Origin: Kiritimatiellia bacterium
GTDB lineage: Bacteria; Verrucomicrobiota; Kiritimatiellia; JAAZAB01
Direction of reading: 5' to 3'
NCBI GenBank assembly: GCA_041674125.1
Contig: JBAYWJ010000001.1
Location: 1-44,655 of the forward strand
DNA length: 44,655 nt
Numbering within the stretch: the stretch's first letter is position 1; each line of letters begins with the position of its first letter. The position numbers were made by a program, and so were the translations under genes. Shown in pieces: positions 7,804 to 40,960 of the stretch. The notes under the pieces were generated by a model. The model searched no databases. It had not been told where the DNA came from and saw only the letters and a program-made list of their open reading frames with translations.

Positions 7804-7821
7804 TTCCCGCTTCCGCGGGAA
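7804..7821. terminator. Hairpin between convergent rsmE and the DUF2723 gene (possible bidirectional terminator or REP-like element)
   Basis: ttcccgc-ttcc-gcgggaa forms a perfect 7-bp stem. It sits between the stop codons at 7769 (+) and 7839 (-). No flanking U-run, so the terminator call is weak. Confidence 0.3.
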
Positions 7822-7838
7822 TGACAGAAGACAAGTTG

Positions 7839-10784
7839 TCACGGCGTTATCAGGCCGGGGAATGTAGAAAAGCCCTGCGGCTGGGGCGACCCGACCATTT
7901 TCTGGAATCCTTCCATGGCGCGCAGGGGATCAAGGCGCTGGTCTTTGCGGATCACATCCTTTATCGGCTCCCCGCCGATGGCGATCGCCTGCTGGAGCGA
8001 CTGCATGGCATTGCCGGGCTGGTTCATCGCGGCCTGGACGCAGCCCAGCTCCAGCCAGACGCGCGGGTCAGAGCGTTCGCGCGCGAGGTAATGCTGGTAG
8101 GCTTCCACCACCATCCCCAGGCGCTGGGGCTGGACCGACATGGCGATTTCGGCAATTTTGATGCAGGCCTGCGGGGGCAGGTTTGTGTTCTTCAAAACCT
8201 GCAGCGAAAGGTCGACGAACTGCGGGTCCTTGTTGCACAGCAGGTAAAGCTGGATAAGCTCGAAAACGCGGTCGAGGGCCGTGCCGCCGCGCGCGAGCTC
8301 CGCCTGCAGCTCTTCGATGCGGGCGTGCTTCTTCTCCAGGTCGTTGATCTGGCCTATGAACCCGATGATCCTGTCGTTGCGCGGGTCCTGCGCCAGGTTC
8401 TTTTCCATCACCTGGCGCGCGTCGGCAAAGCGCCCGTGCTGCATATAAAGATCCGCAAGGCGGAAGTTGGCCTCGGGGCTGCCGGGGTAGAGCTCGATGG
8501 CCTGGCGGAATGCCGCCTCGGCCTCATTGAGCAGGCGCCGGTAGGCATACAGGCCGGCAATGGCGCAGCGCAGCTTGGAAAACGACTTGCGCGCGGTGAC
8601 GTCCCTGAGGAATTTACGGTCGTTCAGCAGGCGGTTGGCGTACCAGTTCCAGAAATCCATGTCGTTTTTGATCATCTCCGGGGTGAGGGCCGGCAAGGGC
8701 TCGGGGTTGATTTTCATGATCAGCCCGTGCGGCTCGAGGTAGGGATACATCCAGGCGATGACGTAGCTTTCCTCCACGTAAAAGGCATGCCGGTGCTTGT
8801 TGGCCTCAAAGATGGCCTTGCTGATGATGCCGTTAATCTCCATCACGCCCTGCACGCCCTGCACGCTGACCTTGCCGCTCTTGTCAACCGTAACGGCGGC
8901 GTTGGCCGGGATGCGCCCGGCGCGCACGTCCTCCACGTAGGACTGGAACGCGCGGTTGGTGTCCTGCGGGGTCGGGATCCAGATCTGGTCGCCGTAGAGG
9001 TCGCGCATGACGTTCATGTAGGTGTTGTCCGCCAGCGCGTTCTGGGTGATGAGGAACACGTCCGGGCGCACCTTGGCCGAGTAAATCATGTAAGTGGGCA
9101 CAAAACGCCCCGGGTCGGTGCCGCCGTAAAATACGGCGTTGGTGCCCATCTCGGGGGGGTACTTTGGATTGGGGGGCGGCGTTTCGCCCGGGCGCAGCTC
9201 CTCCATGATGGCGTCGATTCCGCGCAGCTGGTAATTGCCAAACTGCCAGCCGAAGTCGTGCCCGTTCTGCTCGTTCCCGCCGGTCGTCATGATGATTTGT
9301 TCGTCGTACTGGTTCTGCCAGATCAGGGAAAGCGGCAGGAGCAGGGCAACCAGGATGCCCAGGGCCAGCACGATCCTGCGCCCGAAGGCGCTCTCGATGA
9401 ACGCGAGGCCGAAAAGCAGGCCGTAGCCCAGCCAGACGGCGTAGACCGCGGTTGACTGCACGAACTGCACCTCGGCGATGAAGAGCGACTGGACGTCATG
9501 CGGCGGGTTCAAAATCACCATCATGCCCGGGCCCATGAAGGCGAACCCGATGATCGTGCCCGAAAGCCAGGCCCAGTTCTTGCGCCAGATGTGCCTGAAA
9601 TAAAAAACCGGCACCAGCGCCAGGAAGGCAATCGGGAACGGGAACTGGTCTTCCAGCTCGCTGACGAACTCGTAGGACTGCTTGAGGAAAGCCATGGGCG
9701 TCAGGGCCGGTGAAAGCGCCTGGTACTGGCCGCGGGTGACGGCGTGCTTGAAGCCCTCCCAGGTGCGCGGGTAGCCCCAGTTCATGGGCGGATTGAATTC
9801 AGATGCGATCGGCAGGTAGATAAAGAGGCTCAGGCCCAAGCCGGCGCAGGCGATCATGGGCAGCACCCGCCGCCATTCGGTGAACAGCTCGCGCGTGAAA
9901 ATAAACATCACCGCCGGCGCCGCCAGCATCAGTACGGCGATGAAAATCCACTGGCTGCGCGGCTCGAAAGGCCGGATTGCGTATTCCGGGAACCAGATGC
10001 AGAAAAGTATAAACGCTCCCATGATGACCAGGCCGGCGGCAAAGCAGTCCCGGCAGAGCTTGCGGTCCGTCGCAAAAAGGACCAGCACTATGGCCGGCAC
10101 CAGGAGCACGACCGGCTGGCAGTTGGTGAAGGTTACGCCGAACACCAGCGCCATCCAGTAAAGCAGCCTGCTCGATCCCGGCCGCCGCATCCAGGCGTAA
10201 AGCAGCGTCATGATGAGCACGTGCAGGAAAGCGTTCAGGGTATAGACTTCGGCAATGGTCGCCTGCGACCAAATAAACGGGCTGAAGGCCAGCAAGAGCC
10301 CCGCCGAAACACCGCTGGCCCAGCTGATTATTTTTTCGTTTATGGTCAGGGGGCGGTCTTCCTCGCGGCGCCGGAACTGCAGCATGTCCATCCCCGAGCG
10401 GCTGACGAGGAGCGCCAGGTTGCCGGCCAGCAAAGCCCCGAAAAATGCCGAGAGGAAACCAACCCCCCAGGCCGGGTTGGGGTGTCCCCAGAAGGTTTTC
10501 CAGTGGAAAATCCACTGGGAAATCCACGCCAGGATCGTCCAGAGCGGGTAGCCGGGCGGGTGCGGGACGCCGAGGTAATCCGCGGCCACGATCAGCTCGC
10601 CCGAGTCCTCCAGGGTCACCGAGGGCGCCAGGGTGTAGGTGTAAACCGCGAGCGATATCACGAAAGCCGCTGCAAATGCAACCCAATCCTGTATTCCGAA
10701 CAGGGCGCCATGGGACGCCGGCGCAACGGATTGCCTTTCAAGGGCGCGGTCATCGGGCTTATTCTGCTTATGCTTTTTATCCAT
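7839..10784 (-). CDS. Polytopic membrane DUF2723 (TMEM260-like) glycosyltransferase-like protein with C-terminal TPR repeats
   Basis: The N-terminal motif YTLAPSVTLEDSGELIVAADYLGVPHPPGYPLWTILAW is typical of DUF2723 / dolichyl-phosphate-mannose-type transferases. It is followed by more than 10 hydrophobic segments and a soluble tail with TPR-like repeats (AEAAFRQAIELYPGSPEANFRLADLYMQHGRFADARQVMEKNLAQDP). ATG at 10784; the ORF track opens at TTG 10793. Confidence 0.75.
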   Translation of the reverse strand: MDKKHKQNKPDDRALERQSVAPASHGALFGIQDWVAFAAAFVISLAVYTYTLAPSVTLEDSGELIVAADYLGVPHPPGYPLWTILAWISQWIFHWKTFWGHPNPAWGVGFLSAFFGALLAGNLALLVSRSGMDMLQFRRREEDRPLTINEKIISWASGVSAGLLLAFSPFIWSQATIAEVYTLNAFLHVLIMTLLYAWMRRPGSSRLLYWMALVFGVTFTNCQPVVLLVPAIVLVLFATDRKLCRDCFAAGLVIMGAFILFCIWFPEYAIRPFEPRSQWIFIAVLMLAAPAVMFIFTRELFTEWRRVLPMIACAGLGLSLFIYLPIASEFNPPMNWGYPRTWEGFKHAVTRGQYQALSPALTPMAFLKQSYEFVSELEDQFPFPIAFLALVPVFYFRHIWRKNWAWLSGTIIGFAFMGPGMMVILNPPHDVQSLFIAEVQFVQSTAVYAVWLGYGLLFGLAFIESAFGRRIVLALGILVALLLPLSLIWQNQYDEQIIMTTGGNEQNGHDFGWQFGNYQLRGIDAIMEELRPGETPPPNPKYPPEMGTNAVFYGGTDPGRFVPTYMIYSAKVRPDVFLITQNALADNTYMNVMRDLYGDQIWIPTPQDTNRAFQSYVEDVRAGRIPANAAVTVDKSGKVSVQGVQGVMEINGIISKAIFEANKHRHAFYVEESYVIAWMYPYLEPHGLIMKINPEPLPALTPEMIKNDMDFWNWYANRLLNDRKFLRDVTARKSFSKLRCAIAGLYAYRRLLNEAEAAFRQAIELYPGSPEANFRLADLYMQHGRFADARQVMEKNLAQDPRNDRIIGFIGQINDLEKKHARIEELQAELARGGTALDRVFELIQLYLLCNKDPQFVDLSLQVLKNTNLPPQACIKIAEIAMSVQPQRLGMVVEAYQHYLARERSDPRVWLELGCVQAAMNQPGNAMQSLQQAIAIGGEPIKDVIRKDQRLDPLRAMEGFQKMVGSPQPQGFSTFPGLITP

Positions 10785-10974
10785 AACATGCAAAGAGCGC
10801 AGTTTAATTGCAGATTAACGGCATTGCAACAGTATTTTTTGACTTGTCGACTGCATACGCCGGACCATCGGTTGCCGGCACTGCATCACTTTTTTTCATA
10901 TACGCTATGGCCGGCAGGTTGTATATTCAGGCCGAATACCCCGACAACCATCAAAAGGCAAGCAGCCCGCAACC

Positions 10975-11697
10975 ATGACAGCCACATCCTTCCGGCAGCG
11001 CGGAACAATGTTCGACGCGGCCATGTTCCTGGCCAACTGCCTCCTGGCCTGGCCCCTGGCCGGGCTGGTAAAAAAAACACAGGGTGACGATCCGCTGTTC
11101 GGCGCCTGCCTTCTGGCGGCGGTTTGCCTGCACACCGCCGGGGCCTGTTTCAAGCGCCGGCCGCTTCATGCGCGCCTCGCCGCGCAGAACACCCCGGCCA
11201 TGGGCGGATGGGGGTATATCTTCTTCCTGACGCTCTCCGTGATGCACTACGCCGTTTTTGTTATGTGCGTCACCGTGGGGCTCGCCGACCTTGGCCTGGA
11301 GGGCCGGATGGGCGCGGCTGAACCTTTTGTGGTCCTTGGATGCGCCCTGGCGCCTTCGGTGATGGCCATTGCCGCGCTCGTCCCGCCGCGGGCGCGGGAG
11401 GAGCCAGGCCCCGCAATGGAAAGGAGGGAACTGATCGCCGACGCGCTGGTCTTTGTCTCAACGGTCATCATTATGGCCTGGTGGGACGGGTTCTGGGCGG
11501 AATACCTTGTCACCGCGGCCCGGCCGAATGTGCTGATGGGCCTCCTGCTGGCCGTCCTTACAACAGTTCCCTTCGCCATGTTCTACCTGGCGCCGCGGAT
11601 GGTGCTGCTCAGGGAGGATTATGCCCGCGGCCGGACCTGGATCAGCGCGGCTATAGTGATGCTGCCCCTGGCCGCCCGGCTCATTTTCGGCAGCTGA
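10975..11697 (+). CDS. Hypothetical polytopic membrane protein (about six hydrophobic segments)
   Basis: ATG-initiated 240-aa ORF with alternating hydrophobic stretches and Arg-rich loops. No family was recognised. In a GC-rich genome, the ORF length alone is weak evidence. Confidence 0.45.
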   Translation: MTATSFRQRGTMFDAAMFLANCLLAWPLAGLVKKTQGDDPLFGACLLAAVCLHTAGACFKRRPLHARLAAQNTPAMGGWGYIFFLTLSVMHYAVFVMCVTVGLADLGLEGRMGAAEPFVVLGCALAPSVMAIAALVPPRAREEPGPAMERRELIADALVFVSTVIIMAWWDGFWAEYLVTAARPNVLMGLLLAVLTTVPFAMFYLAPRMVLLREDYARGRTWISAAIVMLPLAARLIFGS

Positions 11698-11717: not shown

Positions 11718-11761
11718 TTGACTCCCGCGCGTAAAAGCACAAGTATTGCCAACGATGGCAA
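11718..11761 (+). promoter_or_regulatory. Putative sigma70-type promoter plus LacI-family palindromic operator overlapping the lacI-like gene start
   Basis: TTGACT (11718-11723), a 17-nt spacer, then AAGTAT (11741-11746), followed directly by TTGCCA-ACGA-TGGCAA (11746-11761). The core TGCCAACGATGGCA fits the LacI/CcpA-type pattern TGnnAnCGnTnnCA. The same 18-mer TATTGCCAACGATGGCAA recurs at 40911-40928. Confidence 0.6.
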
Positions 11762-12732
11762 GTAATTTGAAAAGCGCGGCCGTGACTCTCAGGCACGTGG
11801 CGGAGGAAGCCGGCGTATCGATCCGGACCGTCACCCGCATGCTGAAGAACGAGCCGGGCGGCAACCCGGAGACCTACGCAAGGGTCAGAAAAATCGCCGA
11901 CCGCCTAGGCTATGTGCCGAATGTCGCCGCGCGCAACCTGAAAATCCGATCCAGCAACATGGTCGGGCTGGTCACATCCGCCGGCGGGAACGAAATGCGC
12001 ATCCGGATCCGGATTGCCCTGCAGAAGCGGCTCGAAGGCGCCGGCAAATATTTCATAAGCGGCATGATCGAGCGCGGCGGGGAAAAGCTTGAGCGCATGC
12101 TGAGGGACTGGAGCGGGCTGGCGCGAGACGTCGTATTCCTGACCTGGCCCCATGAGCTTAATCCGGCCGAAATCCTCACCGGGCTGCCCATGCGGTTCAT
12201 TTTCGTTGACTGCCTGGATGACCGGGCCCGCGACGTCGTGCTGATCGACAGGGTTGCCGGCGTGCGCGCGGGCGCGCAGCTCCTGATCAAAACCGGCCAC
12301 CGCCGCATCGCGCGCTGCGGCCCCGACATGCCCACCCGGCGCATGGGCTTCAATGCCGCTTTTGAGGACAAGGCCGGGGCCGGGGTGATAAAATGCGAAA
12401 TCACCACCTCCGGCATCGGCCCGAAGGAAGGCTATGACGCCGGGCCGGCTATCATGAAAAAGGCCGTTGACGCGGTTTTTTTTGAAACTGACAGCCTGGC
12501 TTTAGGTTTTTACAAATACGCCCACGAGCGCGGGATCCGGATCCCGGATGATATCGCGGTGGTCGGCTTCAACGACAACCCCGCCGGCCTCTACGCCTGC
12601 CCCGCCTTGAGCTCGGTGGCCCTCCCCATCGAGGCGATGGCCGGCGAAGTTTGCGACATGATCGTGAAGCCGCAAAAAAAACCGCGCAAGGTGACTTTCC
12701 CGGCCAGATTTGTCAGGCGGGAAAGCGTTTAA
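11755..12732 (+). CDS. LacI-family transcriptional regulator
   Basis: N-terminal helix-turn-helix VTLRHVAEEAGVSIRTVTRMLKNEP...YARVRKIADRLGYVPNVAARNLK, followed by a periplasmic-binding-protein-like sugar-binding core (DAVFFETDSLALGFYKYAHERGIRIPDDIAVVGFND). ATG at 11755, or in-frame TTG at 11767. No obvious Shine-Dalgarno sequence. Confidence 0.9.
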   Translation: MASNLKSAAVTLRHVAEEAGVSIRTVTRMLKNEPGGNPETYARVRKIADRLGYVPNVAARNLKIRSSNMVGLVTSAGGNEMRIRIRIALQKRLEGAGKYFISGMIERGGEKLERMLRDWSGLARDVVFLTWPHELNPAEILTGLPMRFIFVDCLDDRARDVVLIDRVAGVRAGAQLLIKTGHRRIARCGPDMPTRRMGFNAAFEDKAGAGVIKCEITTSGIGPKEGYDAGPAIMKKAVDAVFFETDSLALGFYKYAHERGIRIPDDIAVVGFNDNPAGLYACPALSSVALPIEAMAGEVCDMIVKPQKKPRKVTFPARFVRRESV

Positions 12733-12792
12733 GAGCGTGTGCCGGTTTTCAGCAATGCGCCTTGAACAGAACAACTGGAGGGAGAAAATGCC

Positions 12793-15252
12793 ATGTCCTC
12801 AAAATTAATGTCATTTTCCTCCCTGGTCATAGTGCTGGGCTATGCAATCTTCGGACAGCCGGCTGCCAGTGCGGAAGCGTTCATCGTCAGGGACGGCAAG
12901 GCCAATGCCGAAATTGTGATCGCCGGGAATCCCCCGCGCACGGTCATGCTGGCGGCCGATGAGCTGCGGTCATACGTTGAGAAAATCTCCGGCGCTAAGC
13001 TGTCGATCACGAACGCGCCGGGCAATGGCGTCCCCGTGAAAATCTACGTCGGGCAAAGCGCCCACACCGACAAGCTCGGTATCAAGCCCTACGACATCAA
13101 GGACGGCGGCTACCGGATGGTATCCGGCGACAAGTGGCTGGCCCTCATCGGCCGTGACGATGACTTCACGCCGATCGAACCCTGGCCGCGCAGGAGGAGC
13201 GCCGAAGTTATTGAGCAGTGGGATAAGCTGACCGGCAACGCCAAATGGGGAAATCCCATGGGTGGATTCTTCAAGAGCTACAGCGGCCAAGGCGGCAGCA
13301 TATTTAATTTCGGCAAGCCTGATTTCCAGCCACGTGACCAGAATGATGCGGTCTGCGTATGGGCCTTCGACGAGCGTGGTTCGTTCAACGCGGTCTGCGA
13401 TTTTCTGCGGCGCCTGGGCGTGAGATGGTTCATGCCCGGTGAAATCGGCGAAGTGCTCCCGACAATGTCCTCCATTCCTCTGCCACGCCTCGATGAAACC
13501 ATCCGGCCGGACTTTCCCATCCGGCGCTTCAACTTCAACTTCGCCGGTTCGCACGACGTCACCATGTGGGCAATGCGCCTGGGGATCCGCGACCCGTACG
13601 GCGTCATGACCGCCCACGGCATTAACACATTGACCGGAAGGCCCGAGTTCCAGGCGGCGCACCCGGATTATTTCGCACTCTACGGCGGCAAGCGGAACAA
13701 TACTCCCGAATCACATTACCATCAGCCATGCCTCTCGTCCGAGGGACTCTTTCAGGAAACCGTCCGCTGGGCGCGAACCGTGTTCGACCATTACAAGTTC
13801 GAAACAGTCGACGTCATGCCCCCCGACGCTTTCGTCTCCATGTGTCAGTGCCCGAAATGCGAAGGTAAGGATACGCTAGAGCGGGGCCGTCTCGGGCGCA
13901 TGTCCGATTACGTATGGGACTACGTTAACCGTGTTGCGGAAGAAACCGCCAAGACACACCCCAACAAGAAAATTTCATGCTGTGCCTACGGTCCATACAC
14001 GCTGCCGCCGCTGAAGATTGATAAGCTGAATTCCAACGTCGTGGTCATTGTCGTGGGCGGACGCGAGCCGTTTTCCTCGCGTCCGGAACAGCGTGATGAA
14101 ATCAGGAAGTTCCGTGAATCCTGGATCGAGAAGACAGATAATAAGATACTCGTCTTCGAAAACTATCCTTTCACTCTGCGAGGCTTTTATCTGCCCGCAT
14201 TCTGCCACAAAACCATCGGCGCGAGCATCAATGAGACCAGGGGCTTCTCCCAGGGCGAAGATATCTGGACATCCCAGGGAGGTGCGGGCGGATTGCCCCA
14301 GGCAGGATGGAACCACTTCACCATCTACTTCACCGCGCGTATGTACTGGGAGAAGGACGCGGACGCGCTCTTCGATGACTATTGCCGCATGTTTTACGTC
14401 CCTGCCGAAAAAGAGATGAGGGCTTTCTTCGAATACTGCGAGGCCAACTGGCAGGACATGGAAAAGGATAAGGAGAAGACCATGCGGGCTCTCAACCTTT
14501 TTGCCGAAGCCGAAAAGAAGGCCGATGTTCAGTCAATATATGGCAGGCGAATCGCGATAGTGGCGGACTACCTGAAGCCTTTGAAGAGCAAGAGCCAGCA
14601 ACTGCAGGTAGGCCGCGGGCCCGTTCCGGAGTTCCGTTTGGCGCCGGACGCCGACGGTATCCGCATTGACGGGAAGCTGGACGACGAGTTCTGGCAGAAG
14701 TGCCCGTACTTTGCCAACGGCAGTCTCGCGGAGCTGGAGACAGGCCGCAAGCCCGCTTTCGGGACCTCGTTCAAGGCCGCATGGGGGAACGAATCCATCT
14801 ACCTTGCCATCCGGTGCGAAGACAGGCCGGGCGCCCCGCTCAACATCGGCACGAAGAGGAATGAAGACGCGGCACTTTGGGACGGAGACGCCATCGAAAT
14901 CCTGCTCGAAACGGACACGCATTCCTATTATCAAATATCGATCAACCCCGCCGGCGCGATCGTGAATATAGACCGGCTCAACCGGAAAAACGTATGGGAC
15001 TCGATGGCGGAGGTAGCCACGGAGGTCGGTGACGGTTTCTGGACGATAGAAATACGCATTCCCGTGGTCGAGAAGACGAACGACCCGCTGCACCAGGTGG
15101 ATGGCAGAAAGCCGACCGATTCTCTCCCGTGGTACTTCAATGTATGCCGCCAGCGCCTGCGGCAGACAGGTTCGGAGTTTTCGGCGTTCTCGCCGACCGG
15201 CACCAAAACGTTCCATGACGTCATGAAATTCGGCAAGCTTTATATGAAGTAA
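12793..15252 (+). CDS. Secreted DUF4838-like putative glycoside hydrolase with C-terminal CBM9-like domain (paralog 1)
   Basis: GGAGGGAG RBS and a signal peptide (MSSKLMSFSSLVIVLGYAIFGQPAASAEA). Family signatures shared with five other ORFs: FIVRDGKANAEIVIA...AADELRSYVEKISGAKL, ERGSFNAVCDFLRRLGVRWFMPGEIGEVLP, HPDYFALYGGKR, PCLSS...MCQCPKCEGKD, then IDGKLDDEFWQ...AIEILLETDTHSYYQISINPAG...PWYFNVCRQR...MKFGKLYMK. Confidence 0.85.
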   Translation: MSSKLMSFSSLVIVLGYAIFGQPAASAEAFIVRDGKANAEIVIAGNPPRTVMLAADELRSYVEKISGAKLSITNAPGNGVPVKIYVGQSAHTDKLGIKPYDIKDGGYRMVSGDKWLALIGRDDDFTPIEPWPRRRSAEVIEQWDKLTGNAKWGNPMGGFFKSYSGQGGSIFNFGKPDFQPRDQNDAVCVWAFDERGSFNAVCDFLRRLGVRWFMPGEIGEVLPTMSSIPLPRLDETIRPDFPIRRFNFNFAGSHDVTMWAMRLGIRDPYGVMTAHGINTLTGRPEFQAAHPDYFALYGGKRNNTPESHYHQPCLSSEGLFQETVRWARTVFDHYKFETVDVMPPDAFVSMCQCPKCEGKDTLERGRLGRMSDYVWDYVNRVAEETAKTHPNKKISCCAYGPYTLPPLKIDKLNSNVVVIVVGGREPFSSRPEQRDEIRKFRESWIEKTDNKILVFENYPFTLRGFYLPAFCHKTIGASINETRGFSQGEDIWTSQGGAGGLPQAGWNHFTIYFTARMYWEKDADALFDDYCRMFYVPAEKEMRAFFEYCEANWQDMEKDKEKTMRALNLFAEAEKKADVQSIYGRRIAIVADYLKPLKSKSQQLQVGRGPVPEFRLAPDADGIRIDGKLDDEFWQKCPYFANGSLAELETGRKPAFGTSFKAAWGNESIYLAIRCEDRPGAPLNIGTKRNEDAALWDGDAIEILLETDTHSYYQISINPAGAIVNIDRLNRKNVWDSMAEVATEVGDGFWTIEIRIPVVEKTNDPLHQVDGRKPTDSLPWYFNVCRQRLRQTGSEFSAFSPTGTKTFHDVMKFGKLYMK

Positions 15253-15399: not shown

Positions 15400-15552
15400 T
15401 TCGGCACGAAGCCGGACGAAAACAAGCCCTGGCATTTCAACGTCTGCCGCCAGCGCCTGCGCGAGAAAGAACCGGAATATTTGGCTTTTTCACCGACCGG
15501 CAAGAAAGGCTTTCATTTCCCGCGCAAGTTCGGTCGGCTTTTTGTAAAATGA
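15400..15552 (+). pseudogene. C-terminal relic (~50 codons) of a seventh DUF4838/CBM9-like paralog
   Basis: FGTKPDENKPWHFNVCRQRLREKEPEYLAFSPTGKKGFHFPRKFGRLFVK aligns with the last ~50 residues of paralog 1 (DGRKPTDSLPWYFNVCRQRLRQTGSEFSAFSPTGTKTFHDVMKFGKLYMK). Nothing upstream resembles the remaining ~770 codons. Its TGA overlaps the ATG of paralog 2 (ATGA at 15549-15552). Confidence 0.75.
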
Positions 15553-21541: not shown

Positions 21542-22393
21542 TCATTGCGCATCTTTTGGGTCGGATTTTGACCGCGAGGGGCTGAATCCCATGATGCGCT
21601 TGAAGGCCTTGGAAAAGGAGTAGGGGTCGGCGAAGCCCAGTTCGTAGCCCACTTCGCCGATGGAACGATTGCGCTGCTGCAGCTCATGGAGCGCGTGGGT
21701 CATTTTGCGCCGTAGCAGGAAGCGGTGCGGCGGGCAATCCGCATGGCGCTGGAACAAGCGGCATAACCTGGCGTGGGTGGTGCCGAATTGCCGGGCGACA
21801 TCCGCCACGCTGCGAATTTTGATATAATTATGAATAATATACTCCCGGCAGCCGGTAAACAGCATGCGGCCTGGATCGCCGGTGGCGCTGGCGTGTTCAT
21901 GTTCCAGGCGGATGGTCTGGAGAGTAGGAGGCAGCAGCCCGGCCACAATGTCGCTGGCGGCTGGATAGCCTTTGCCGGCGGCTGTCAACATGGCCATAAA
22001 CAGGGATTCCACCTGGCCGGCATCGGCGGGGGCAAAGATGCGGGAAGACTGCCCCAGGAATTCCGTTACCACATTACTGCCGGGTGTGAACCGGACAACA
22101 CAGATCAGCAGGCGCAAGCCTTTTTCGGCAATGACCGAGAACCCGTATTGGCAAGGCTCCCTGGCAAGGTAGACAATGTGGCCCGGCCTGGCTTCCAGCC
22201 GCGATGTTTCCGTTTCGATGGCCAGGCATCCTTCCTGGATATAAGCAATAAAACTGCTGTCGTGCCCGCGACGGACGTGATGGAATTCACGGTTCCAGTG
22301 TTCCTGGGCGACGCGCAGAACCCACGGCCGGCCCTTTGAAGGTTGGTTCAGGATATAGCTTTGCTTGCTGATGAATTTTATATTGCTTGGCAT
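21542..22393 (-). CDS. AraC-family transcriptional regulator (cupin-like sensor domain plus double HTH)
   Basis: C-terminal IRSVADVARQFGTTHARLCRLFQRH...HRFLLRRKMTHALHELQQRNRSIGEVGYELGFADPYSFSKAFKRIMGFSPS is the AraC/XylS HTH signature. Divergent from the URO-D-like gene pair. Confidence 0.9.
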   Translation of the reverse strand: MPSNIKFISKQSYILNQPSKGRPWVLRVAQEHWNREFHHVRRGHDSSFIAYIQEGCLAIETETSRLEARPGHIVYLAREPCQYGFSVIAEKGLRLLICVVRFTPGSNVVTEFLGQSSRIFAPADAGQVESLFMAMLTAAGKGYPAASDIVAGLLPPTLQTIRLEHEHASATGDPGRMLFTGCREYIIHNYIKIRSVADVARQFGTTHARLCRLFQRHADCPPHRFLLRRKMTHALHELQQRNRSIGEVGYELGFADPYSFSKAFKRIMGFSPSRSKSDPKDAQ

Positions 22394-29008: not shown

Positions 29009-31969
29009 ATGATCAGTTCCATAGAAAATTTCAGAACCCATAAAAGGGCGCTGGTCTTTCTCCTGTTCGGCTTGACGGTTGTTGGACGACCGGTGATGGG
29101 CGCGGAAACATTCATCGTCAGGGATGGCAAGGCCAACGGCGAAATCGTCATTGCCGCGCAGCCCGCGCGGACCGTGCGGCTGGCGGCGGCCGACCTGCAG
29201 GGCTACATCCAGAAGATCACCGGCGCGCGGCTGCCGATCGTCACCGAGCCGGGCGGCAAGGGGAGCGTCAAGCTTTTCGTCGGCCGCAGCCCGCATACCG
29301 ACAAGCTCGGCGTCACCGCCGCTGGGCTGAAGCACGGCGCCTATTGCCTCCGCTCGGGCGATGACTGGCTGGCCTTCATCGGCGACGACACGGACTTCGT
29401 TCCGCCCGAGATTTGGGCGCGCCGAGGCGGTGACGCCAAAGAATATGAGCGGGTGCAGAAAGAGTGGGAAGCCGCGTCCGGCGGTCCCTGGCTGGCGCCG
29501 GCTGTTGCCGGCCACATGTGGAAGAATCGCCGCCATGTGCCGGCCGAAGTTGGCCTGCCCGACGCGGCCACCCGCCCCGGCAAGGGACAGACCTTCGAAA
29601 TGTGGACCTACGACGAGCGGGGATCGTACAACGCGGTCGCCGCCTTTCTGCAGGAGCTCGGCGTGCGCTGGCTGATGCCGGGCGAGCTGGGCGAGATCGT
29701 GCCCAAGATGAAATCAATCGCCCTGCCGCGGACCGACCGGACCGTTCGCCCCGACTTTGAAATCCGCGCCTTCCATCTCAATATGGGGGAATGGACCTTC
29801 CGCCTGGGGGCGCGCGACCCGTTTAGGGCGTGGACCGAGCACGGCATGAGCCTTTTGCAGCGCGAGGAAATATTCGAAGCCCACCCGGAGTGGTTCGCCC
29901 TGTACGGGGGCAAGCGGGACATCAGGCAATTCTGTTACTCGAGCGAGGAGCTGTTCCGGGAAACGCTGCGCTGCGTCCGGGCTCAGTTCGACGTGTACGG
30001 CTTCGAGGGCGTTTCGGTGATGCCGCCCGACGGCTACACCGCGATGTGCCAGTGCAAATTGTGCGAAGGGAAAGATGATCCCGGTCGCCCCCTGCTGGGC
30101 AGGCACTCGAACTATGTGTGGGGCTTCGTAAACCGCGTGGCGAAGGAAATCGCCAAAACTCACCCGGGCAAGCTCATTTATAACCTCGCGTACAATTATT
30201 ACAGGCTGCCGCCGACGAACATCGACAAGCTCGAGCCGAACGTGCAGGTGATCCTCTGCGGCGGGCGCCATACTCCGGGCCTTCCCGCGGCCGGGCAGGC
30301 CGAGCTCCGCGCGTGGCGCGAAAGCTGGCTGCCGAAAACAGACCGCCCGCTCGAGATGTATGAGAACTATCCGTGGACGAGCCGCGGCCACTACAAGCCC
30401 TGCTTCGCGGCCCGGACCATCGGCCAGGACATCAACGCCACCAAGGGCATTTCGCGCGGCGAAGGAATCCACATGAATGCCATGCAGAAAAAAAACGCCG
30501 GCAGCGACGCCTTCAACGCGTTCCAGATTTACTTCACGGCGCGCATGTACTGGGGCGGCAGGGAGCAAAATCCCGAAGAGCTGCTCGACGAGTATTGCCG
30601 CCTGCTCTACGGCCCGGCCGGGGATGAAATGAAGGCTTTTTTCAACTACAGCGAAGCGAACTGGCAGGACATGGAAAAGGACAAGGCGAAGGTTGACGCG
30701 GCGCTTACCCTATTCGACGGAGCTAAAGCGAAACTGGAGCCGGAGAGCATCGAGGCGCGGCGCCTGGCGCCGCTCGACCAGTTCCTGAACGGCTTGCGGG
30801 AGAAGTCGGCGCAGCTGGGGCAGAAGCGCGGCGTGGTGCCGTCGTTGCGCCTGGTGGGCGAGGCCAATGGCATCGTCATTGACGGACAGCTTGACGAGCC
30901 GTTCTGGCAACAGATCAACACCGGTTCCACCGGCCGGCTGCGCGAGGTGCAAACCGGCCGGTGGCCAGCCCTGGGGACCTCGGTGAAGGCCGGCTGGTAC
31001 GGCAACAGCCTGTACTTCGCCGTCCGCTGCGACGAAGTCCCCGGTGAGAAACCGAACGTCACGGCGGACAAGCACGACGACATGGGGATTTTTTATGGCG
31101 ATGTCGTCGAAATTCTGCTGGAAACAAGCATGCATTCCTACTACCAGATCGCCGTCAACCCGGCCGGGGTGGTGTGCGACCTTGACCGCGCGAAGGGAAT
31201 CTCCGAGTGGGACTCCCTGGCCGAGGTCGCCGCGCGCGTGGCCGACGACCACTGGGCGCTCGAAATTCGCATTCCCGTCACCGATAACGCGGATGACCCC
31301 CTGCACCAGGTCATGGGCCGCGCGCCCTCGATCAGCCTGCCGTGGTTTTTCAACGTTTGCCGCCAGCGCCAGCGCGAAAACGGGGTTGAGCACTCGGCTT
31401 TTTCGCCGGCGGGAAAGAGCGGCTTTCACCACCCGATGAGCTTCGCGCACCTGTACACGGGACTCTCGCACAAATTCGAGGCCGACCTGACCGTGACGAA
31501 TTTCCCTGGCGCGCTCAGCGCGGCGGAGAAGTTGCCGAAGGCCGAGTCACTGACGGCGCTGGTCGCTTTGGCCGAGGGGTCCCAGGGCAAGCTTTCAGAG
31601 CTCCAGCAGTCTGAAGCGCTGAAGCAGGCGGCCGCCGTGGCCCGCGCCTTGAAGGACTTCTCCCGCGCGGACGAGCTCGCCGGGCGCATTCCCGTCGAGG
31701 CGGTGAAGAAGACCGTGCTCATGCACAACCTGCTCGACCAGAAGAAAGCGGCGGAGGTGATTGAGAAGCTCGGCCAGGAGGACATCGCCGCCTGGCCATT
31801 CTGGGCGGTCGGCGAAGGATACTTTGCGCGCGCTCGCGCCTATGCCGCCACCGGCGACCGGGCCAGGGCCGAGTCCGATTTCAAGGCGGCTCTTCCGCTC
31901 ACCGGCGATCCACGCGTTCGAGAAGCGATTCTCAAAGCCCTCCGTGAGCTGACCGGCGAGGCGAAATAA
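29009..31969 (+). CDS. Secreted DUF4838-like / CBM9-like protein with an extra ~165-aa helical (TPR-like) C-terminal extension (paralog 3)
   Basis: AGGAAGGAG RBS and a signal peptide. FIVRDGKANGEIVIAAQ, ERGSYNAVAAFLQELGVRWLMPGELGEIVP, HPEWFALYGGKRD, FCYSS...MCQCKLCEGKDD, IDGQLDEPFWQQ, PWFFNVCRQRQR, MSFAHLYTG. It then continues where the other paralogs stop. Confidence 0.85.
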   Translation: MISSIENFRTHKRALVFLLFGLTVVGRPVMGAETFIVRDGKANGEIVIAAQPARTVRLAAADLQGYIQKITGARLPIVTEPGGKGSVKLFVGRSPHTDKLGVTAAGLKHGAYCLRSGDDWLAFIGDDTDFVPPEIWARRGGDAKEYERVQKEWEAASGGPWLAPAVAGHMWKNRRHVPAEVGLPDAATRPGKGQTFEMWTYDERGSYNAVAAFLQELGVRWLMPGELGEIVPKMKSIALPRTDRTVRPDFEIRAFHLNMGEWTFRLGARDPFRAWTEHGMSLLQREEIFEAHPEWFALYGGKRDIRQFCYSSEELFRETLRCVRAQFDVYGFEGVSVMPPDGYTAMCQCKLCEGKDDPGRPLLGRHSNYVWGFVNRVAKEIAKTHPGKLIYNLAYNYYRLPPTNIDKLEPNVQVILCGGRHTPGLPAAGQAELRAWRESWLPKTDRPLEMYENYPWTSRGHYKPCFAARTIGQDINATKGISRGEGIHMNAMQKKNAGSDAFNAFQIYFTARMYWGGREQNPEELLDEYCRLLYGPAGDEMKAFFNYSEANWQDMEKDKAKVDAALTLFDGAKAKLEPESIEARRLAPLDQFLNGLREKSAQLGQKRGVVPSLRLVGEANGIVIDGQLDEPFWQQINTGSTGRLREVQTGRWPALGTSVKAGWYGNSLYFAVRCDEVPGEKPNVTADKHDDMGIFYGDVVEILLETSMHSYYQIAVNPAGVVCDLDRAKGISEWDSLAEVAARVADDHWALEIRIPVTDNADDPLHQVMGRAPSISLPWFFNVCRQRQRENGVEHSAFSPAGKSGFHHPMSFAHLYTGLSHKFEADLTVTNFPGALSAAEKLPKAESLTALVALAEGSQGKLSELQQSEALKQAAAVARALKDFSRADELAGRIPVEAVKKTVLMHNLLDQKKAAEVIEKLGQEDIAAWPFWAVGEGYFARARAYAATGDRARAESDFKAALPLTGDPRVREAILKALRELTGEAK

Positions 31970-34323: not shown

Positions 34324-36798
34324 ATGCCGCGAATATTTGCATTCTATAGAATAACCATCATCGCTGCTATCCTCGCGCTCGGACACACTGGCGCATTCGG
34401 GTTGCAATTCATTGCCAGGGACGGAAAGCCCAATGCCGAAATCGTCATTACCGAAAAGCCGGCGCGCCTGACGAAGCTGGCGGCGCGCGAACTGCAAACT
34501 TATATCCGTAAAATCAGCGGGGCGGAGTTGGCGGTAACGAACGCACCCGGCGGCGCGCCGGTGCAGGTTTACGTCGGTAAAAGCGCATACACTGATAAGC
34601 TGGGCCTGGACACCTCCGGGTTGAAATACGGCGCCTTCCGGATGGCTTCCGGTACTAATTATCTCGCCCTTCTCGGACCGGACAAGGATTTTGTGCCGAT
34701 CGAGCCCTGGGTGCATGACCGGAAAGACAGGGAGCGAGTCCTGCAGGAATGGGACAAGATCACCGGGGACAAATTCGCCTCGCCCTATTCGCACCAGTAC
34801 CGGCGCTACTCGGCCTCGCTGGATTTCTGGGAGGATGACGACGCCGGCACACTGAACGCCGTGCACGAGTTTTTGCGCTCGCTCGGGGTGCGCTGGTATT
34901 TTCCCGGTGAGATCGGGGAAGTCGTGCCGAAGCTGGAGAACATCGAGTTGCCGCAAGTTGAAAGGACGGTAAGGCCGGATTTCCCGCTGCGTTACCTGCA
35001 ATGGGTATACAAGAGTGCCGGTCTGCCGGAGGACGATTTGTGGTGGAGCCTGCGCCTGGGGGGGAGCGGGAGCTTGGAGCTGCTCGGGCTTACGCAGACC
35101 TGCCACGGGATGAAGTTCGTCACCACGCGCGATGAGATGAAGAAGGAACACCCGGAATATTATGCTCTCTGGAACGGTAAACGGGCGACGGACCACCGCG
35201 AGTGCGGGGCGCCCTGCCTCTCATCGGAAGGGGTCTTCCAAGAGCACCTGAAATACGCCCGCGCGGTTTTTGACCATTACCGCGAACCATTGATATCGCT
35301 GGACGTGTGCGACGGCTACTCAAGGCTTTGCGGGTGCGACCTGTGCCGCGGCAAGGATGACAAGAATTATGAATGGAGCGGCAACCTGGCTGGCCGCGGC
35401 CTTCTTTCGGATTACATCTGGGAATATACGCAGCGCGTGGCGCGGGAATTGCAGAAGAGCCATCCGGACCGGCGGGTGAGCGGCATTGCCTACGGCTCCC
35501 ACATGCTGCCGCCGGAAAAAATCGCCAAGCTCAATCCCAACCTGTCCGTGCTGATCAACCAGCGCCGCAGCAACTTCCACGATCCGGCCGTGTGGGAAGA
35601 ATATATCAAACTCCGCAAGGCCTGGCTGGAAAAGCTGAACGGAGGCGATCTTTTCATCTTCGAGCATTATTCGCCGAACGAGGGCCTTCCGGATTACAAC
35701 ATGCGGGCCATCGCCGCCGACCTGCGCTCATTGAAGGGAATATCGAAGGGCGATACGGTAGAGCTTTTCCACCATCGTCCGACGGATAAGTTCGCCTGGC
35801 ATGCCATGGCGGTAATGCATCTTAACCTGTACGTGACCGCGCGCCTGTGGTGGGATGCCAACCAGGACCTGGACGCTCTCCTGGAGGAATACTACACCCT
35901 CTTTTACGGACCTGCCCGCGGTCAGATGAAAGCCTTTATCGAGTTTTCCGAGGCAAACTGGCCCGGGATGACCACGCAGCCCGGACTAATTGACCGGGCG
36001 CTGGAATTGCTGAAAGCGGCCCGCACCGCAGCCGGCGACGGCATTTACGGACAGCGGGTGGATTTGCTTGTGGCCTACTGCGAGCCCCTGCGGCAGTTGC
36101 GCTCTCGCCTGGGCAAGGAGCGGGTGGATGTGCCCCAGGCGCGAGCCCTGGAACAAAGCATGAAGGGCGAGCCGCTGGACGGCAACCTGGACAACGAAGC
36201 CTACTGGCCTAAAAAAACCAGGGTTTACCGGCTGTACGACCTGGAGAGCGGGAAAACCACGGGCGGGTCCGGCTCGATTAATCCCCGGACGACGTTCCAG
36301 GTGTTCCATGGCAGGGACAATGCCCTGTATTTTGGCATCCGCTGCGCGGAACCGGACATGGTGAACCTCAACATCACGGCCACCCGAAACGGCGACACGA
36401 ATATCTGGGCCGGCGATTACATCGAGCTCCTGGTCGAAACCCAGGTGCATTCTTACTATAGGATTGCCGTCAACCCGGCCGGAGCGCTGGTGGATGCGGA
36501 CATGGGCGCGGGCGGAGGCGTAAACCCGGATTGGGATTCATCGGCCGTGGCCGCCGTGCAACGCGGCACCAGCGGCTGGACCGTGGAAATGCGCGTTCCC
36601 TGGGCAGGCGATGATGCCCGCGACGCGGATCCCCTGCTCGGGATTGCCGGGCGCAAGCCCGGACTGAAATATCCCTGGTTCATCAACGTCTGCCGCCAGC
36701 GCATACGCAATGGCAAGTTGGAGCGCTCGGCCTGGTCGCCGACCGGCACGAACACTTTTTATGACGATATGAAATTCGGCGAGCTTTACATTAAATAG
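34324..36798 (+). CDS. Secreted DUF4838-like / CBM9-like protein (paralog 4)
   Basis: Signal-like ITIIAAILALGHTGAFG. FIARDGKPNAEIVITE, AGTLNAVHEFLRSLGVRWYFPGEIGEVVP, HPEYYALWNGKRA, PCLSS...LCGCDLCRGKDD, LDGNLDNEAYW, PWFINVCRQRIR, MKFGELYIK. Confidence 0.85.
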   Translation: MPRIFAFYRITIIAAILALGHTGAFGLQFIARDGKPNAEIVITEKPARLTKLAARELQTYIRKISGAELAVTNAPGGAPVQVYVGKSAYTDKLGLDTSGLKYGAFRMASGTNYLALLGPDKDFVPIEPWVHDRKDRERVLQEWDKITGDKFASPYSHQYRRYSASLDFWEDDDAGTLNAVHEFLRSLGVRWYFPGEIGEVVPKLENIELPQVERTVRPDFPLRYLQWVYKSAGLPEDDLWWSLRLGGSGSLELLGLTQTCHGMKFVTTRDEMKKEHPEYYALWNGKRATDHRECGAPCLSSEGVFQEHLKYARAVFDHYREPLISLDVCDGYSRLCGCDLCRGKDDKNYEWSGNLAGRGLLSDYIWEYTQRVARELQKSHPDRRVSGIAYGSHMLPPEKIAKLNPNLSVLINQRRSNFHDPAVWEEYIKLRKAWLEKLNGGDLFIFEHYSPNEGLPDYNMRAIAADLRSLKGISKGDTVELFHHRPTDKFAWHAMAVMHLNLYVTARLWWDANQDLDALLEEYYTLFYGPARGQMKAFIEFSEANWPGMTTQPGLIDRALELLKAARTAAGDGIYGQRVDLLVAYCEPLRQLRSRLGKERVDVPQARALEQSMKGEPLDGNLDNEAYWPKKTRVYRLYDLESGKTTGGSGSINPRTTFQVFHGRDNALYFGIRCAEPDMVNLNITATRNGDTNIWAGDYIELLVETQVHSYYRIAVNPAGALVDADMGAGGGVNPDWDSSAVAAVQRGTSGWTVEMRVPWAGDDARDADPLLGIAGRKPGLKYPWFINVCRQRIRNGKLERSAWSPTGTNTFYDDMKFGELYIK

Positions 36799-38295: not shown

Positions 38296-40755
38296 ATGAA
38301 CCTCAGAAAAATGCTCAGCGCCGCGCTCATGTCCGCGCTTGTTCTGTGCCTCGTCATACCGGCGGGATGGGCCGCAGAGTTCATTGTCAAGGAAGGCAAG
38401 CCCCAGGCCGATATTATCATCCCCGAAAAGCCCACCCGCATGCAGAAGCTGGCGGCGGAAGAATTGCAGAAGTACGTTGAAAAAATATCCGGAGCCAAAT
38501 TGGCGGTCACAAACGCACCGGGCTCTGACTTGCCTGTCAAGATCTACGTGGGCAAAAGCGCATCCACCGACAAACTCGGCCTGGACAACAAGGACCTTGA
38601 CCACGGCGCCTATCTCATGAAATCCGGGGCGGACTCGTCCGCCAAGGTGGATTACCTCGCCCTGATGGGCAAGGATACGGATTACTTCCAGGAAAAGCCC
38701 GGCAGCGGCGGCGATGTTTATCCCGTCAACAGCGGTGACCGTAAACGTGCCGTCGAGGCCTGGGTAAAGAAGCACGGCGAACAGTGGAGTACGCCTTTCA
38801 TGTCTTATTTCAAGGCTTATAATGCCAAGATGGGAATCTGGAGCGTTGACGAGCACGGGTCGCTGAACGCGGTCAATGATTTCCTGCGGTCGCTGGGAGT
38901 GGAATGGTACATGCCGGGCGACTTCGGCGAGATCCTGCCGAAGATGGCCTCCATTCCACTGCCGAAAATTGACAAGACCGTCCGGCCGGAATTCGCCTCG
39001 CGCCACATGGGTTTTTACCAGAACGCTCCTTTCCAGGCTTCCCCGGATGAAATGCTCTGGCAGTTGAGGCTGGGCCTCAATCCAAACGGCAACCTCGGCG
39101 GGCACGGCATCGCAAACATGCTCGGCCCGGAAAAGGTCAAGAAAGAGCACCCTGAATATTTTGCCTTGTATGGCGGCAAACGCGAGACCGAAAGCCGCGG
39201 CGGCAAGCCCTGCTATTCCTCGCAGGGATTGATGGAGTCTTCCCTTGGTTTTACCCGCCTGATGTTCGACCATTACAAAGAGGATATCGTCTCCCTGATG
39301 CCGACCGACGGCTACGCCTACTTCTGCCAGTGCGACCTGTGCAAGGGCAAGGACACGCCCGCGCGCGGCTACGACGGCATGATGTCGGATTACGTCTGGG
39401 ATTTCATCAACCGCGCCGCGGCCGAATCGGCCAAGACCCATCCAGGCAAAAAAATCAGCTGCTACGCTTATTCCACCTACCTGCTGCCGCCGGAAAAGAT
39501 AGAGAACTTCCACCCCAATGTCGCCATGGGGATCTGCCAGCACCGCAGCCGGTTCTGCGACCCGGCCGTCCGTAAGAAATACCTTGCTGTCCGCGAAGAG
39601 TTCCTGAAAAAACTGCCCGGCAAAAAAATCGGCACCTATGACTATTACCTGGACCCGCGCGCAGGCGTGCCGGTCTATTTCCCGCGCATCATCGCCGAGG
39701 ACATGAAGTGGCTCAAGGGCAAGGTTCACGGCGAATACATGGAAGTTTACCGCAGCGCCAGCTCGGCCAACAACCCCAAGCCCGACCCGGCCCTGGCCGC
39801 CAACCACCTCAACCTCTGGCTCACGGCCCGCCTCTACTGGGATCCCGACCGGGACGCGGAGGCCATGCTCGCGAAATACTTCCGCGATTTCTACGGCCCG
39901 GCGGAAAAGGAAATGAAGGCCTTCGTAGAGTTTTGCGAAAAAAATCATACCCTCATGCGCAGCAAGGTGGAAACCATTGACGCCGCCTTCAAACTGCTGG
40001 CCAAGGCCCAAAAGGCCGCCGGCGTGGGCAACATCCACGCCGACCGCGTCCAGCTGCTGGCCGAGCTCATGTCCCCGCTGCGCGAGCTGCGCGAAAAGCT
40101 GGAAGTCGGCCGCAAGAACAACCCCGTGGCCATGCTTGCCGACCGCGGCAAGGAAGTGCCCAAGCTTGACGGCAACTTTGACGATGCATTCTGGAAGGAC
40201 GCACCTTCCTACGAACTCAGGGACCTCAAAACCGGCGCCGCAATGACCAACAAGGCCAGCTTCAAGATGGCTTGGGCCAACGACAGCCTTTATTTCGCCA
40301 TCCGCTGCGATGACAGCGACATGAAGAACATTTATATTCCCGCCACGAAAAACGGCGACAGCCTCATCTTCGACGGCGACGCCGTGGAAATCGAACTTGA
40401 GTCGCCGTCCCATTCCTATTACCAGATTGCCATTGACCCGGCCGGCCACGTCATTGATCTGGACCGCAAGAGCGGATTCGGTTCCCAGTGGGAATCGGGG
40501 ATCGAGGCGGTTGTTGTAAAGAATGAAACATCCTGGAGCATCGAGGCGCGCCTGCCGGTCATGGGCGCCACCCAGGAGGAGCTGAACCCGGAGCTTGGCA
40601 TTTCCGGCGACAAGCCCACTTCGGATACCCCGTGGTATTTCAACGTCTGTCGCTTGCGCAAACGCGATAAAGTTGTTGAAACCTCGGCTTTTTCCCCGAC
40701 CGAAACGGGCGGGTTTCACAACGTCATGAAGTTCGGCAAGCTTTCCGTCAAGTGA
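38296..40755 (+). CDS. Secreted DUF4838-like / CBM9-like protein (paralog 5)
   Basis: AGGAGG RBS before ATG 38296, with signal peptide MNLRKMLSAALMSALVLCLVIPAGWA. FIVKEGKPQADIIIPE, HGSLNAVNDFLRSLGVEWYMPGDFGEILP, HPEYFALYGGKRE, PCYSS...FCQCDLCKGKD, LDGNFDDAFWKD, PWYFNVCRLRKR, MKFGKLSVK. The 37213 start in the ORF track is a read-through of antisense sequence. Confidence 0.85.
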   Translation: MNLRKMLSAALMSALVLCLVIPAGWAAEFIVKEGKPQADIIIPEKPTRMQKLAAEELQKYVEKISGAKLAVTNAPGSDLPVKIYVGKSASTDKLGLDNKDLDHGAYLMKSGADSSAKVDYLALMGKDTDYFQEKPGSGGDVYPVNSGDRKRAVEAWVKKHGEQWSTPFMSYFKAYNAKMGIWSVDEHGSLNAVNDFLRSLGVEWYMPGDFGEILPKMASIPLPKIDKTVRPEFASRHMGFYQNAPFQASPDEMLWQLRLGLNPNGNLGGHGIANMLGPEKVKKEHPEYFALYGGKRETESRGGKPCYSSQGLMESSLGFTRLMFDHYKEDIVSLMPTDGYAYFCQCDLCKGKDTPARGYDGMMSDYVWDFINRAAAESAKTHPGKKISCYAYSTYLLPPEKIENFHPNVAMGICQHRSRFCDPAVRKKYLAVREEFLKKLPGKKIGTYDYYLDPRAGVPVYFPRIIAEDMKWLKGKVHGEYMEVYRSASSANNPKPDPALAANHLNLWLTARLYWDPDRDAEAMLAKYFRDFYGPAEKEMKAFVEFCEKNHTLMRSKVETIDAAFKLLAKAQKAAGVGNIHADRVQLLAELMSPLRELREKLEVGRKNNPVAMLADRGKEVPKLDGNFDDAFWKDAPSYELRDLKTGAAMTNKASFKMAWANDSLYFAIRCDDSDMKNIYIPATKNGDSLIFDGDAVEIELESPSHSYYQIAIDPAGHVIDLDRKSGFGSQWESGIEAVVVKNETSWSIEARLPVMGATQEELNPELGISGDKPTSDTPWYFNVCRLRKRDKVVETSAFSPTETGGFHNVMKFGKLSVK

Positions 40756-40787
40756 AGCTGCCGGCCCGGGCCGCGGACTATTTTCCA

Positions 40788-40820
40788 GCGCGGATTAGGG
40801 AGTTAATACCGTATCCGCGC
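40788..40820 (+). terminator. Hairpin downstream of paralog 5 (weak terminator candidate)
   Basis: gcgcggat, a 17-nt loop, then atccgcgc: a perfect 8-bp stem, 33 nt after the stop codon. No U-run. Confidence 0.3.
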
Positions 40821-40881
40821 TTCGCACAGGCCGGGCCAGGAAACGTAAAAACGCGACGCACCAAAACATATCCTCAAGATA

Positions 40882-40928
40882 TTGACAGATACCGCAAATG
40901 ATGCAAACATTATTGCCAACGATGGCAA
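40882..40928 (+). promoter_or_regulatory. Second copy of the promoter plus LacI-type operator module, upstream of paralog 6
   Basis: TTGACA (40882-40887), a 17-nt spacer, AAACAT (40905-40910), then TATTGCCAACGATGGCAA (40911-40928). This is 33 nt upstream of ATG 40961. The 25-nt stretch TATTGCCAACGATGGCAA-N-TAATT is identical at 24/25 positions to 11744-11768. Confidence 0.6.
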
Positions 40929-40960
40929 CTAATTATTTCTCTCGAGGCGGGGGCAAAACG

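Follow-up and report, generated by a model that had tools for sequence, protein, structure and literature searches.

The closest described systems are the local, autoregulated sugar repressors of the LacI/GalR family (RbsR, the LacI-family GntR, GalR and the regulators of RegPrecise-type regulons; PMC4052901). In the survey of that family an even palindrome with a central CG was reported for 1173 of 1303 regulators, ∼90% were local sugar regulators and 72% were autoregulated, autoregulation being found in more than three-quarters of the analysed local regulators (888 transcription factors; PMC4052901). Here we analysed a stretch of 44,655 nucleotides (nt) from contig JBAYWJ010000001.1 of Kiritimatiellia bacterium, obtained from a landfill metagenome and referred to below as the window, in which a 16-nt palindrome, TTGCCAACGATGGCAA, occurs twice: at the predicted promoter of a LacI-family gene (here lacI) and at that of the last of six DUF4838 genes (paralogs 1 to 6). 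As in the known systems, a regulator with the same domain set is encoded beside carbohydrate-active genes, and an even 16-bp palindrome with a central CG lies over the predicted -10/+1 region of its own and a nearby catabolic promoter; unlike in those systems, the putative targets encode DUF4838 glycosidase-like proteins and sulfatases in Kiritimatiellia/Lentisphaeria-type organisms. Judging from the sequence comparisons set out below, we consider it very likely that the palindrome is the operator of the repressor encoded by this lacI gene.

Two further systems invite comparison. The cre sites of CcpA in Firmicutes resemble the window sites in their pattern, TGnnAnCGnTnnCA, and in overlapping promoters as for repression. 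However, CcpA is a global regulator dependent on HPr-Ser-P, with degenerate sites in the hundreds, whereas the window site is near-invariant, occurs twice in 44.6 kb, is linked to its own regulator and belongs to one functional gene set. We rejected global control of the CcpA/cre kind for the regulator of the window, given that it scored 79.8 bits with the TIGR01481 ccpA model against a cut-off of 442 and that only two near-identical sites are present in the window. Three relatives carrying two operators 32–44 bp apart (L052, L080 and L090, described below) recall the cooperative multi-operator repression of the E. coli lac repressor, whereas the window sites are single and, at 29 kb from each other, cannot form a lac-style loop. 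The half-site TGCCA and the recognition-helix residues IR (AGVS-IR-TV) of the regulator differ from LacI (YQ), PurR (TT) and CcpA (MA). Our literature search found no described operator for uncultured landfill or wastewater bacteria of the Kiritimatiellia/Lentisphaeria type, and a search of the text of PMC4052901 for the one phylum name ‘Verrucomicrobia’ gave 0 matches. We regard this LacI-family orthologous group and its motif as previously undescribed in bacteria of the Planctomycetes–Verrucomicrobia–Chlamydiae (PVC) group, and the arrangement itself as a conceptually routine LacI-type switch.

The protein encoded beside the first site is of the LacI family, as the initial annotation had proposed, and has both the N-terminal helix-turn-helix (HTH) plus hinge and the C-terminal periplasmic-binding-like domain of LacI/GalR proteins. 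Pfam LacI (PF00356) matched residues 11–56 over the full model (E 2.6e-11), and Peripla_BP_3 (PF13377; E 4.2e-25), the putative effector domain, extends to the end of the protein. The recognition helix is AGVSIRTVTRMLK and the hinge, VPNVAARNLK, contains the conserved Leu. Searches against the PDB gave LacI-family matches at 1e-24 to 1e-17, with full-length alignment to 5ysz, 3dbi, CcpA, LacI and PurR. None of the NCBIfam equivalog cut-offs was reached (the best, RbsR, gave 139 bits against a cut-off of 382), so the regulator is not an orthologue of a characterised one. It belongs instead to a group of orthologues (P0002–P0021) that are 87–35% identical, against a generic LacI background of ∼30%, and all of them keep AGVSIRTVTR as recognition helix and AARNL in the hinge.

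The two window copies sit within a longer repeated module, TATTGCCAACGATGGCAAGTAATT at 11744–11767 and TATTGCCAACGATGGCAACTAATT at 40911–40934, of which 18 consecutive nt (TATTGCCAACGATGGCAA) are common to both. The copies are real, as first noted, but the identity of 24/25 then assigned to them was too high: they match at 23 of 24 positions, or 23 of 25 over the coordinates originally used, where the 25th base is T in one and A in the other. The inverted repeat with a central CG was also correctly recognised. The core is palindromic at 14 of 16 positions (TTGCCAAC|GATGGCAA) and has the form of a LacI-family operator, that is, an even palindrome of 14–22 bp with a central CG step. Scanning the window for the core returned exactly two exact copies, starting at 11746 and 40913, in keeping with the original failure to find a further full copy. 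Only one other position has three or fewer mismatches (three, at 38384, in coding sequence), and none of 100 dinucleotide shuffles of the window equalled the observed number of core matches. A symmetrised weight matrix, built only from sites outside the window, scored 28.8 bits at each of 11746 and 40913, with 8.6 bits for the next match and a maximum of 18.6 bits among 30 shuffles. The two window sites alone exceed background, and the palindrome is not a common dispersed repeat; these statistics cover the 44.6 kb, one contig, seen of the source genome. All other direct repeats of the window are 60–88% identical coding segments of the DUF4838 paralogs.

We considered whether weaker operators might precede other paralogs and rejected the candidates. 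The matches with three to four mismatches at 38384–38399, 29115–29130 and 34412–34427 are coding DNA, lack the central CG and encode F-I-V-(K/R)-(E/D)-G-K, a motif conserved near the N-termini of the DUF4838 paralogs; that at 38384 is kept as coding sequence in a relative (L165, at 7364).

Both copies stand directly behind predicted promoters, and here the initial annotation held up well: TTGAC(T/A) -35 hexamers with 17-nt spacers are present at each, the lacI ATG lies inside the first module, and copy 2 does lie 33 nt upstream of paralog 6, the ATG being the 33rd base after the core (32 nt intervene). Transcription is predicted to start at ∼11752–11755 for lacI and ∼40915–40919 for paralog 6; public sludge runs, possibly of RNA, yielded sparse contigs of related strains at low coverage and no 5′ ends. 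The two copies are not spaced alike, their -35-to-module distances being 3 nt different, and the paralog 6 promoter has the register seen at three sites in relatives (L005-a, L005-b and L156). The coordinates of these and the associated features are collected in Table 1.

Table 1. Putative operators, predicted promoters and associated genes in the window.
Feature	Coordinates	Strand	Details
Predicted lacI promoter	11718–11746	+	-35 TTGACT 11718–11723; 17-nt spacer; -10 AAGTAT 11741–11746
Putative operator 1	11746–11761	+	TTGCCAACGATGGCAA; overlaps predicted lacI -10/+1; includes called lacI ATG 11755
LacI-family regulator gene	11755–12732	+	325 amino acids as called; alternative in-frame GTG 11782
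DUF4838 + CBM9 glycosidase-like paralog 1	12793–15252	+	Pfam; 60-nt gap after lacI; GGAGGGAG before ATG
Predicted paralog 6 promoter	40882–40910	+	-35 TTGACA 40882–40887; 17-nt spacer; -10 AAACAT 40905–40910
Putative operator 2	40913–40928	+	TTGCCAACGATGGCAA; between predicted -10 and DUF4838 paralog 6 start
DUF4838 paralog 6, signal peptide	40961–42910	+	Pfam DUF4838 1.1e-39; ATG 40961 preferred start
Sulfatase, twin-arginine signal MENMSNIMDRRNFLK	42967–44469	+	Pfam Sulfatase 1.1e-49; 56 nt past paralog 6

Comparative evidence comes from orthologues of the regulator, for which we collected the contigs of ten by exact protein look-up and three further lacI loci from motif scans of public collections. 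The palindrome is present at the lacI promoter in 9 of these 13 contig groups, whose regulators are 87–40% identical to that of the window, with the consensus TTGCCAWCGWTGGCAA and its central CG; by our own estimate the chance of a match with at most two mismatches in 300 nt is ∼1.6e-4. Named relatives of both the regulator and paralog 6 come from metagenome-assembled genomes (MAGs) of Kiritimatiellia, Victivallaceae/Victivallales and Lentisphaeria. In the closest group (L001–4, 87%) an identical site lies over the lacI ATG. At 76% (L005/L006) the arrangement is TTGACA-N17-GAACAT-TA-TTGCCAACGATGGCAA, again with the ATG inside the site, and the remaining upstream DNA is unalignable. The sites then become TTGCTATCGATGGCAT, 74 nt upstream of lacI, at 67% (L007–9); TTGACA-N16-TATGGT-A-TTGCCATCGTTGGCGG at 53% (L169); and TTGACA-N17-TATAAT-AA-ATGCCAACGTTGGCGA at 43% (L012/13). 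Two Victivallales MAGs of low GC content have the site directly behind consensus or near-consensus promoters (as also in L012), namely TTGACA-N17-TATAAT with a second site 44 bp downstream (L052) and TTGACA-N17-TATACT with a second site 32 bp downstream (L080), and in L090 a pair of sites is spaced by 32 bp, with the -35 coinciding with the TTGCCA half of the first one. Overall, at 12 of 13 primary sites the predicted promoter consists of a TTGAC[AT]-like -35, a spacer of 16–18 nt and a -10 ending 0–3 nt before the palindrome, a consistent layout that would suit repression at -10/+1 if the promoters are as predicted. The palindrome thus travels with the regulator orthologues through diverged DNA, as a LacI-type operator would.

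An orientation-specific role for the asymmetric centre AACGAT was rejected, since this asymmetry is flipped in L169 and the centres are symmetric in L007 and L012 (fully symmetric forms are TGCCATCGATGGCA in L007-b and TGCCAACGTTGGCA in L012). In L007 (2925–2970), and also in L008 and L009, a long and almost perfect inverted repeat, AGGAGGCTGCCGGACGTTGGC ttc GCCAACGTCCGGCAGCCTCCT, lies between the operator and the lacI start and is predicted to be a strong hairpin in the 5′ leader. We also noted that the site-2 promoter region of the window (40880–40928; ATTGACAGA...GCAAACATTATTGCC) is closer to the lacI promoter of L005 (9960–10007; ATTGACAGA...GCGAACATTATTGCC) than to the lacI promoter of the window, a likeness that includes the 3-nt longer spacing and suggests that promoter-operator cassettes move or get copied between genes.

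Site 2 is likewise kept. Orthologues of paralog 6 occur in L165 (87%), a syntenic wastewater relative, and L166 (83%), and in both the 14-nt core TGCCAACGATGGCA is retained ahead of a GGAGG- or GGAG-led ATG, at distances of 55 and 30 nt, respectively, within intergenic DNA that has diverged beyond alignment. The motif is therefore conserved upstream of orthologous genes at both window positions. No site was found at a 60% homologue of paralog 6 in a different context (L167), and L165, which covers the syntenic segment from paralog 3 to paralog 6, has only one. Further sites lie before genes of similar kinds: a second exact copy between lactonase and sulfatase genes in L005-b (TTGACA-N17-GATCAT-GA-site), an orthologous arrangement before a sulfatase in L156 (TTGACA-N17-GATTAT-site-ATAGGAGAATAAC-ATG) and TTGACA-N16-TAATAT-TA-TTGCCATCGATGGCGA before a 3-keto-disaccharide-hydrolase-like gene in L007–9. 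The lacI orthologues themselves are followed by DUF4838 genes (L001–5, and L168 past an SSF transporter) or by a gene for a 440-amino-acid GFO/IDH/MocA oxidoreductase (L012, L052 and L080), so that the target set across relatives mirrors the gene content of the window.

On the reading we favour, a repressor dimer would bind the TGCCA/TGGCA half-sites with its hinge helices at the central CG. The operator, beginning 0–3 nt past the -10 and spanning the predicted transcript start (roughly -5 to +12 of sigma-70-type promoters), would let the bound protein block either open-complex formation by RNA polymerase or its escape from that complex, and thus repress rather than activate. One promoter so controlled would be the repressor's own, probably together with the downstream DUF4838 gene or genes, and the other that of paralog 6 and the exported sulfatase. 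Release of the repressor would follow when its Peripla_BP_3 domain binds an effector, a sugar or a derivative of one, that probably arises from breakdown of the sulfated glycan attacked by the locus. The regulon boundary and the single effector put forward in the initial annotation are, like these steps, things we infer.

Several observations weigh against an operator of this repressor. The -10 hexamers of the window, AAGTAT and AAACAT, are weak, each matching the consensus at only 3 of 6 positions, for which reason a generic promoter scan calls neither promoter. A site over a start codon is unusual, fewer than 1% of LacI-family sites lying in coding regions (PMC4052901). At four of the 13 orthologue loci (L010, L011, L168 and L170) lacI lacks a site, which means that not every member of the group is autoregulated, and the palindrome could instead be bound by a LacI paralogue that shares this recognition helix. 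The four loci without a site, together with the fit of the motif to the generic LacI/CcpA pattern and the fact that the source genome was seen as one contig, lend some support to the alternative that best survives, in which the palindrome is the operator of another regulator (a LacI paralogue or a CcpA-like global one encoded elsewhere) and the adjacent lacI is only a target. We judge this improbable, as the site is found at the promoter of this very regulator group in 9 of 13 contig groups, distant low-GC MAGs included and often in tandem, local LacI regulators as a rule control their own genes (PMC4052901), and the targets are a narrow functional set and not central metabolism.

It is more improbable still that the palindrome acts as an RNA hairpin, be it a weak terminator or attenuator or a stabiliser of the mRNA 5′ end, and not as protein-binding DNA. 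The window copies do fold, at -8.9 and -7.2 kcal/mol (z scores of -2.65 and -3.38), and a simple terminator scan flags operator 2 (40913–40928 plus CTAATTATTT) as terminator-like, which we judge a mislabel. However, the stem has merely 6 bp with three G-C pairs, the corresponding sites in L165 and L007 fold no better than shuffles, and the sequence is invariant even in the unpaired ACGA/CG, while the changes seen in relatives are non-compensatory (TTGCTA...TGGCAT in L007). Moreover, the site is placed behind a -35/-10 pair and not at the end of a gene, and it is accompanied by one regulator family.

The 18-mer TATTGCCAACGATGGCAA has ∼150 matches in public collections, nearly all inside open reading frames (ORFs) of unrelated taxa, where it (ATT GCC AAC GAT GGC AA) encodes I-A-N-D-G-K/N. 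Examples at loci L014–L164 are ‘YNAIANDGK’ in penicillin-binding-protein-like ORFs and ‘VIANDGK’ in response regulators; promoter-type sites among these matches are limited to L052, L080, L090 and L156. Such in-gene recurrence calls for caution with scans based on the motif alone. These matches, and the extension of identity 2 nt 5′ and 6 nt 3′ of the palindrome (TA...nTAATT) in this genome only, might point to a recently copied promoter cassette or a coincidence with no regulatory role, but that explanation is the least credible of those considered, because both sites are kept at orthologous positions amid diverged DNA with only the palindromic core retained, and neither window copy is read within a gene in the frame that gives IANDG.

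If the palindrome is the operator of the adjacent lacI, it may have a further role there. Its right half reads CG-ATG-GCAA and so always contains an ATG, which is in frame with lacI in the window, L001–4 and L005/6 and is the only in-frame start codon before the HTH in L005. In the window lineage transcription is predicted to start 0–6 nt upstream of this ATG. We suggest with some reserve that in the window, L001–4 and L005/6 the lacI mRNA is leaderless or nearly so, the operator doubling as the start of both transcription and translation. In distant relatives the operator lies 45–300 nt upstream of a normal lacI start, with a Shine-Dalgarno sequence in at least L080, so that, were this true, the window lineage would have ‘collapsed’ the leader onto the operator; a single evolutionary event of this kind, which depends on the predicted promoters, is an idea we hold no more than tentatively. 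The operator ATG as a general start codon was rejected, since in L156, L165 and L007 it lies out of frame or leads into stop codons; in L005-b and at window site 2, homologous N-termini favour a downstream start led by a Shine-Dalgarno-like sequence. At site 2 the operator ATG (40922) is in frame with paralog 6 and probably unused; orthologues of 651–652 amino acids have the equivalent start behind GGAGG/GGAG, and their lengths and N-termini support ATG 40961.

Housekeeping genes occupy the first 11 kb of the window: GrpE, DnaJ, two RNA methyltransferases and, on the minus strand, a TPR/TMEM260-like gene. In this region long ORFs overlap, 7839–10793 on the minus strand against 7821–9455 and 9744–11087 on the plus strand; the minus-strand ORF of 984 amino acids alone has domain matches (TMEM260-like O-mannosyltransferase and TPR), so those on the plus strand are probably high-GC artefacts. 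From 11755 onwards, as far as the contig extends, the genes form a carbohydrate locus. Copy 1 does mark its left end, but the right ‘end’ at which copy 2 was originally placed is merely that of the contig, ∼190 nt past the sulfatase. The six DUF4838 genes start at 12793, 15549, 29009, 34324, ∼38296 and 40961, and the locus further has a GH28 gene, three sulfatases, a minus-strand AraC regulator, two URO-D-like genes, a GH-like six-hairpin protein, a GFO/IDH/MocA oxidoreductase, a 3-keto-disaccharide hydrolase and a BNR protein. Proteins of the CAZy families GH163 (the complex N-glycan endo-N-acetylglucosaminidase BT1035) and GH185 (the 6-sulfo-N-acetylglucosaminidase Sp_0475) have DUF4838 as their catalytic domain (PMC10570127); from these families and the content of the locus, it plausibly degrades a sulfated glycan containing N-acetylglucosamine.

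Paralog 1 is probably co-transcribed with lacI; we found no terminator in the gap between them, whose predicted fold is unremarkable, and the order lacI then DUF4838 is kept in L001–5. The initial annotation had copy 2 probably also drive the sulfatase with the twin-arginine (Tat) signal. The Tat motif (DRRNFLK), the short gap and the lack of a predicted plus-strand terminator within it make co-transcription with paralog 6 plausible, and the sulfatase is probably part of that unit. In L165, however, the paralog 6 orthologue is followed by a gene for a 976-amino-acid Laminin_G_3 protein (11966–14896) and by no Tat sulfatase, so the content of the site-2 unit varies among close relatives. The interior of the locus may be transcribed from the two operator promoters or otherwise controlled, for which the AraC gene (21542–22393) is the obvious candidate. 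Just past the paralog 5 stop and before the site-2 promoter, at 40787–40826, there is a strong GC-rich hairpin (GCGCGGAT...ATCCGCGC) within a region of -47 kcal/mol (z score of -2.5) that lacks a T-tail and may be a terminator or an insulator between two transcription units. In the 296-nt spacer between paralogs 1 and 2, 106 nt (15427–15532) are 72% identical to coding sequence of paralog 3 (31340–31445) and similar to the C-terminal ends of paralogs 1, 4 and 5; the segment lies exactly 300 nt after its equivalent in paralog 1 and looks like the remnant of a duplicated gene end.

The putative operator offers a testable regulatory handle on a large locus for the degradation of sulfated glycans. 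The predicted promoters point to standard sigma-70-type promoters at these genes in these bacteria, and the motif TTGCCAWCGWTGGCAA, together with the TTGACA-N17-TATAAT promoters of the relatives, lends itself to scans of complete MAGs. The regulon obtained from such scans would hint at the inducing sugar and at the substrates of the DUF4838 paralogs.

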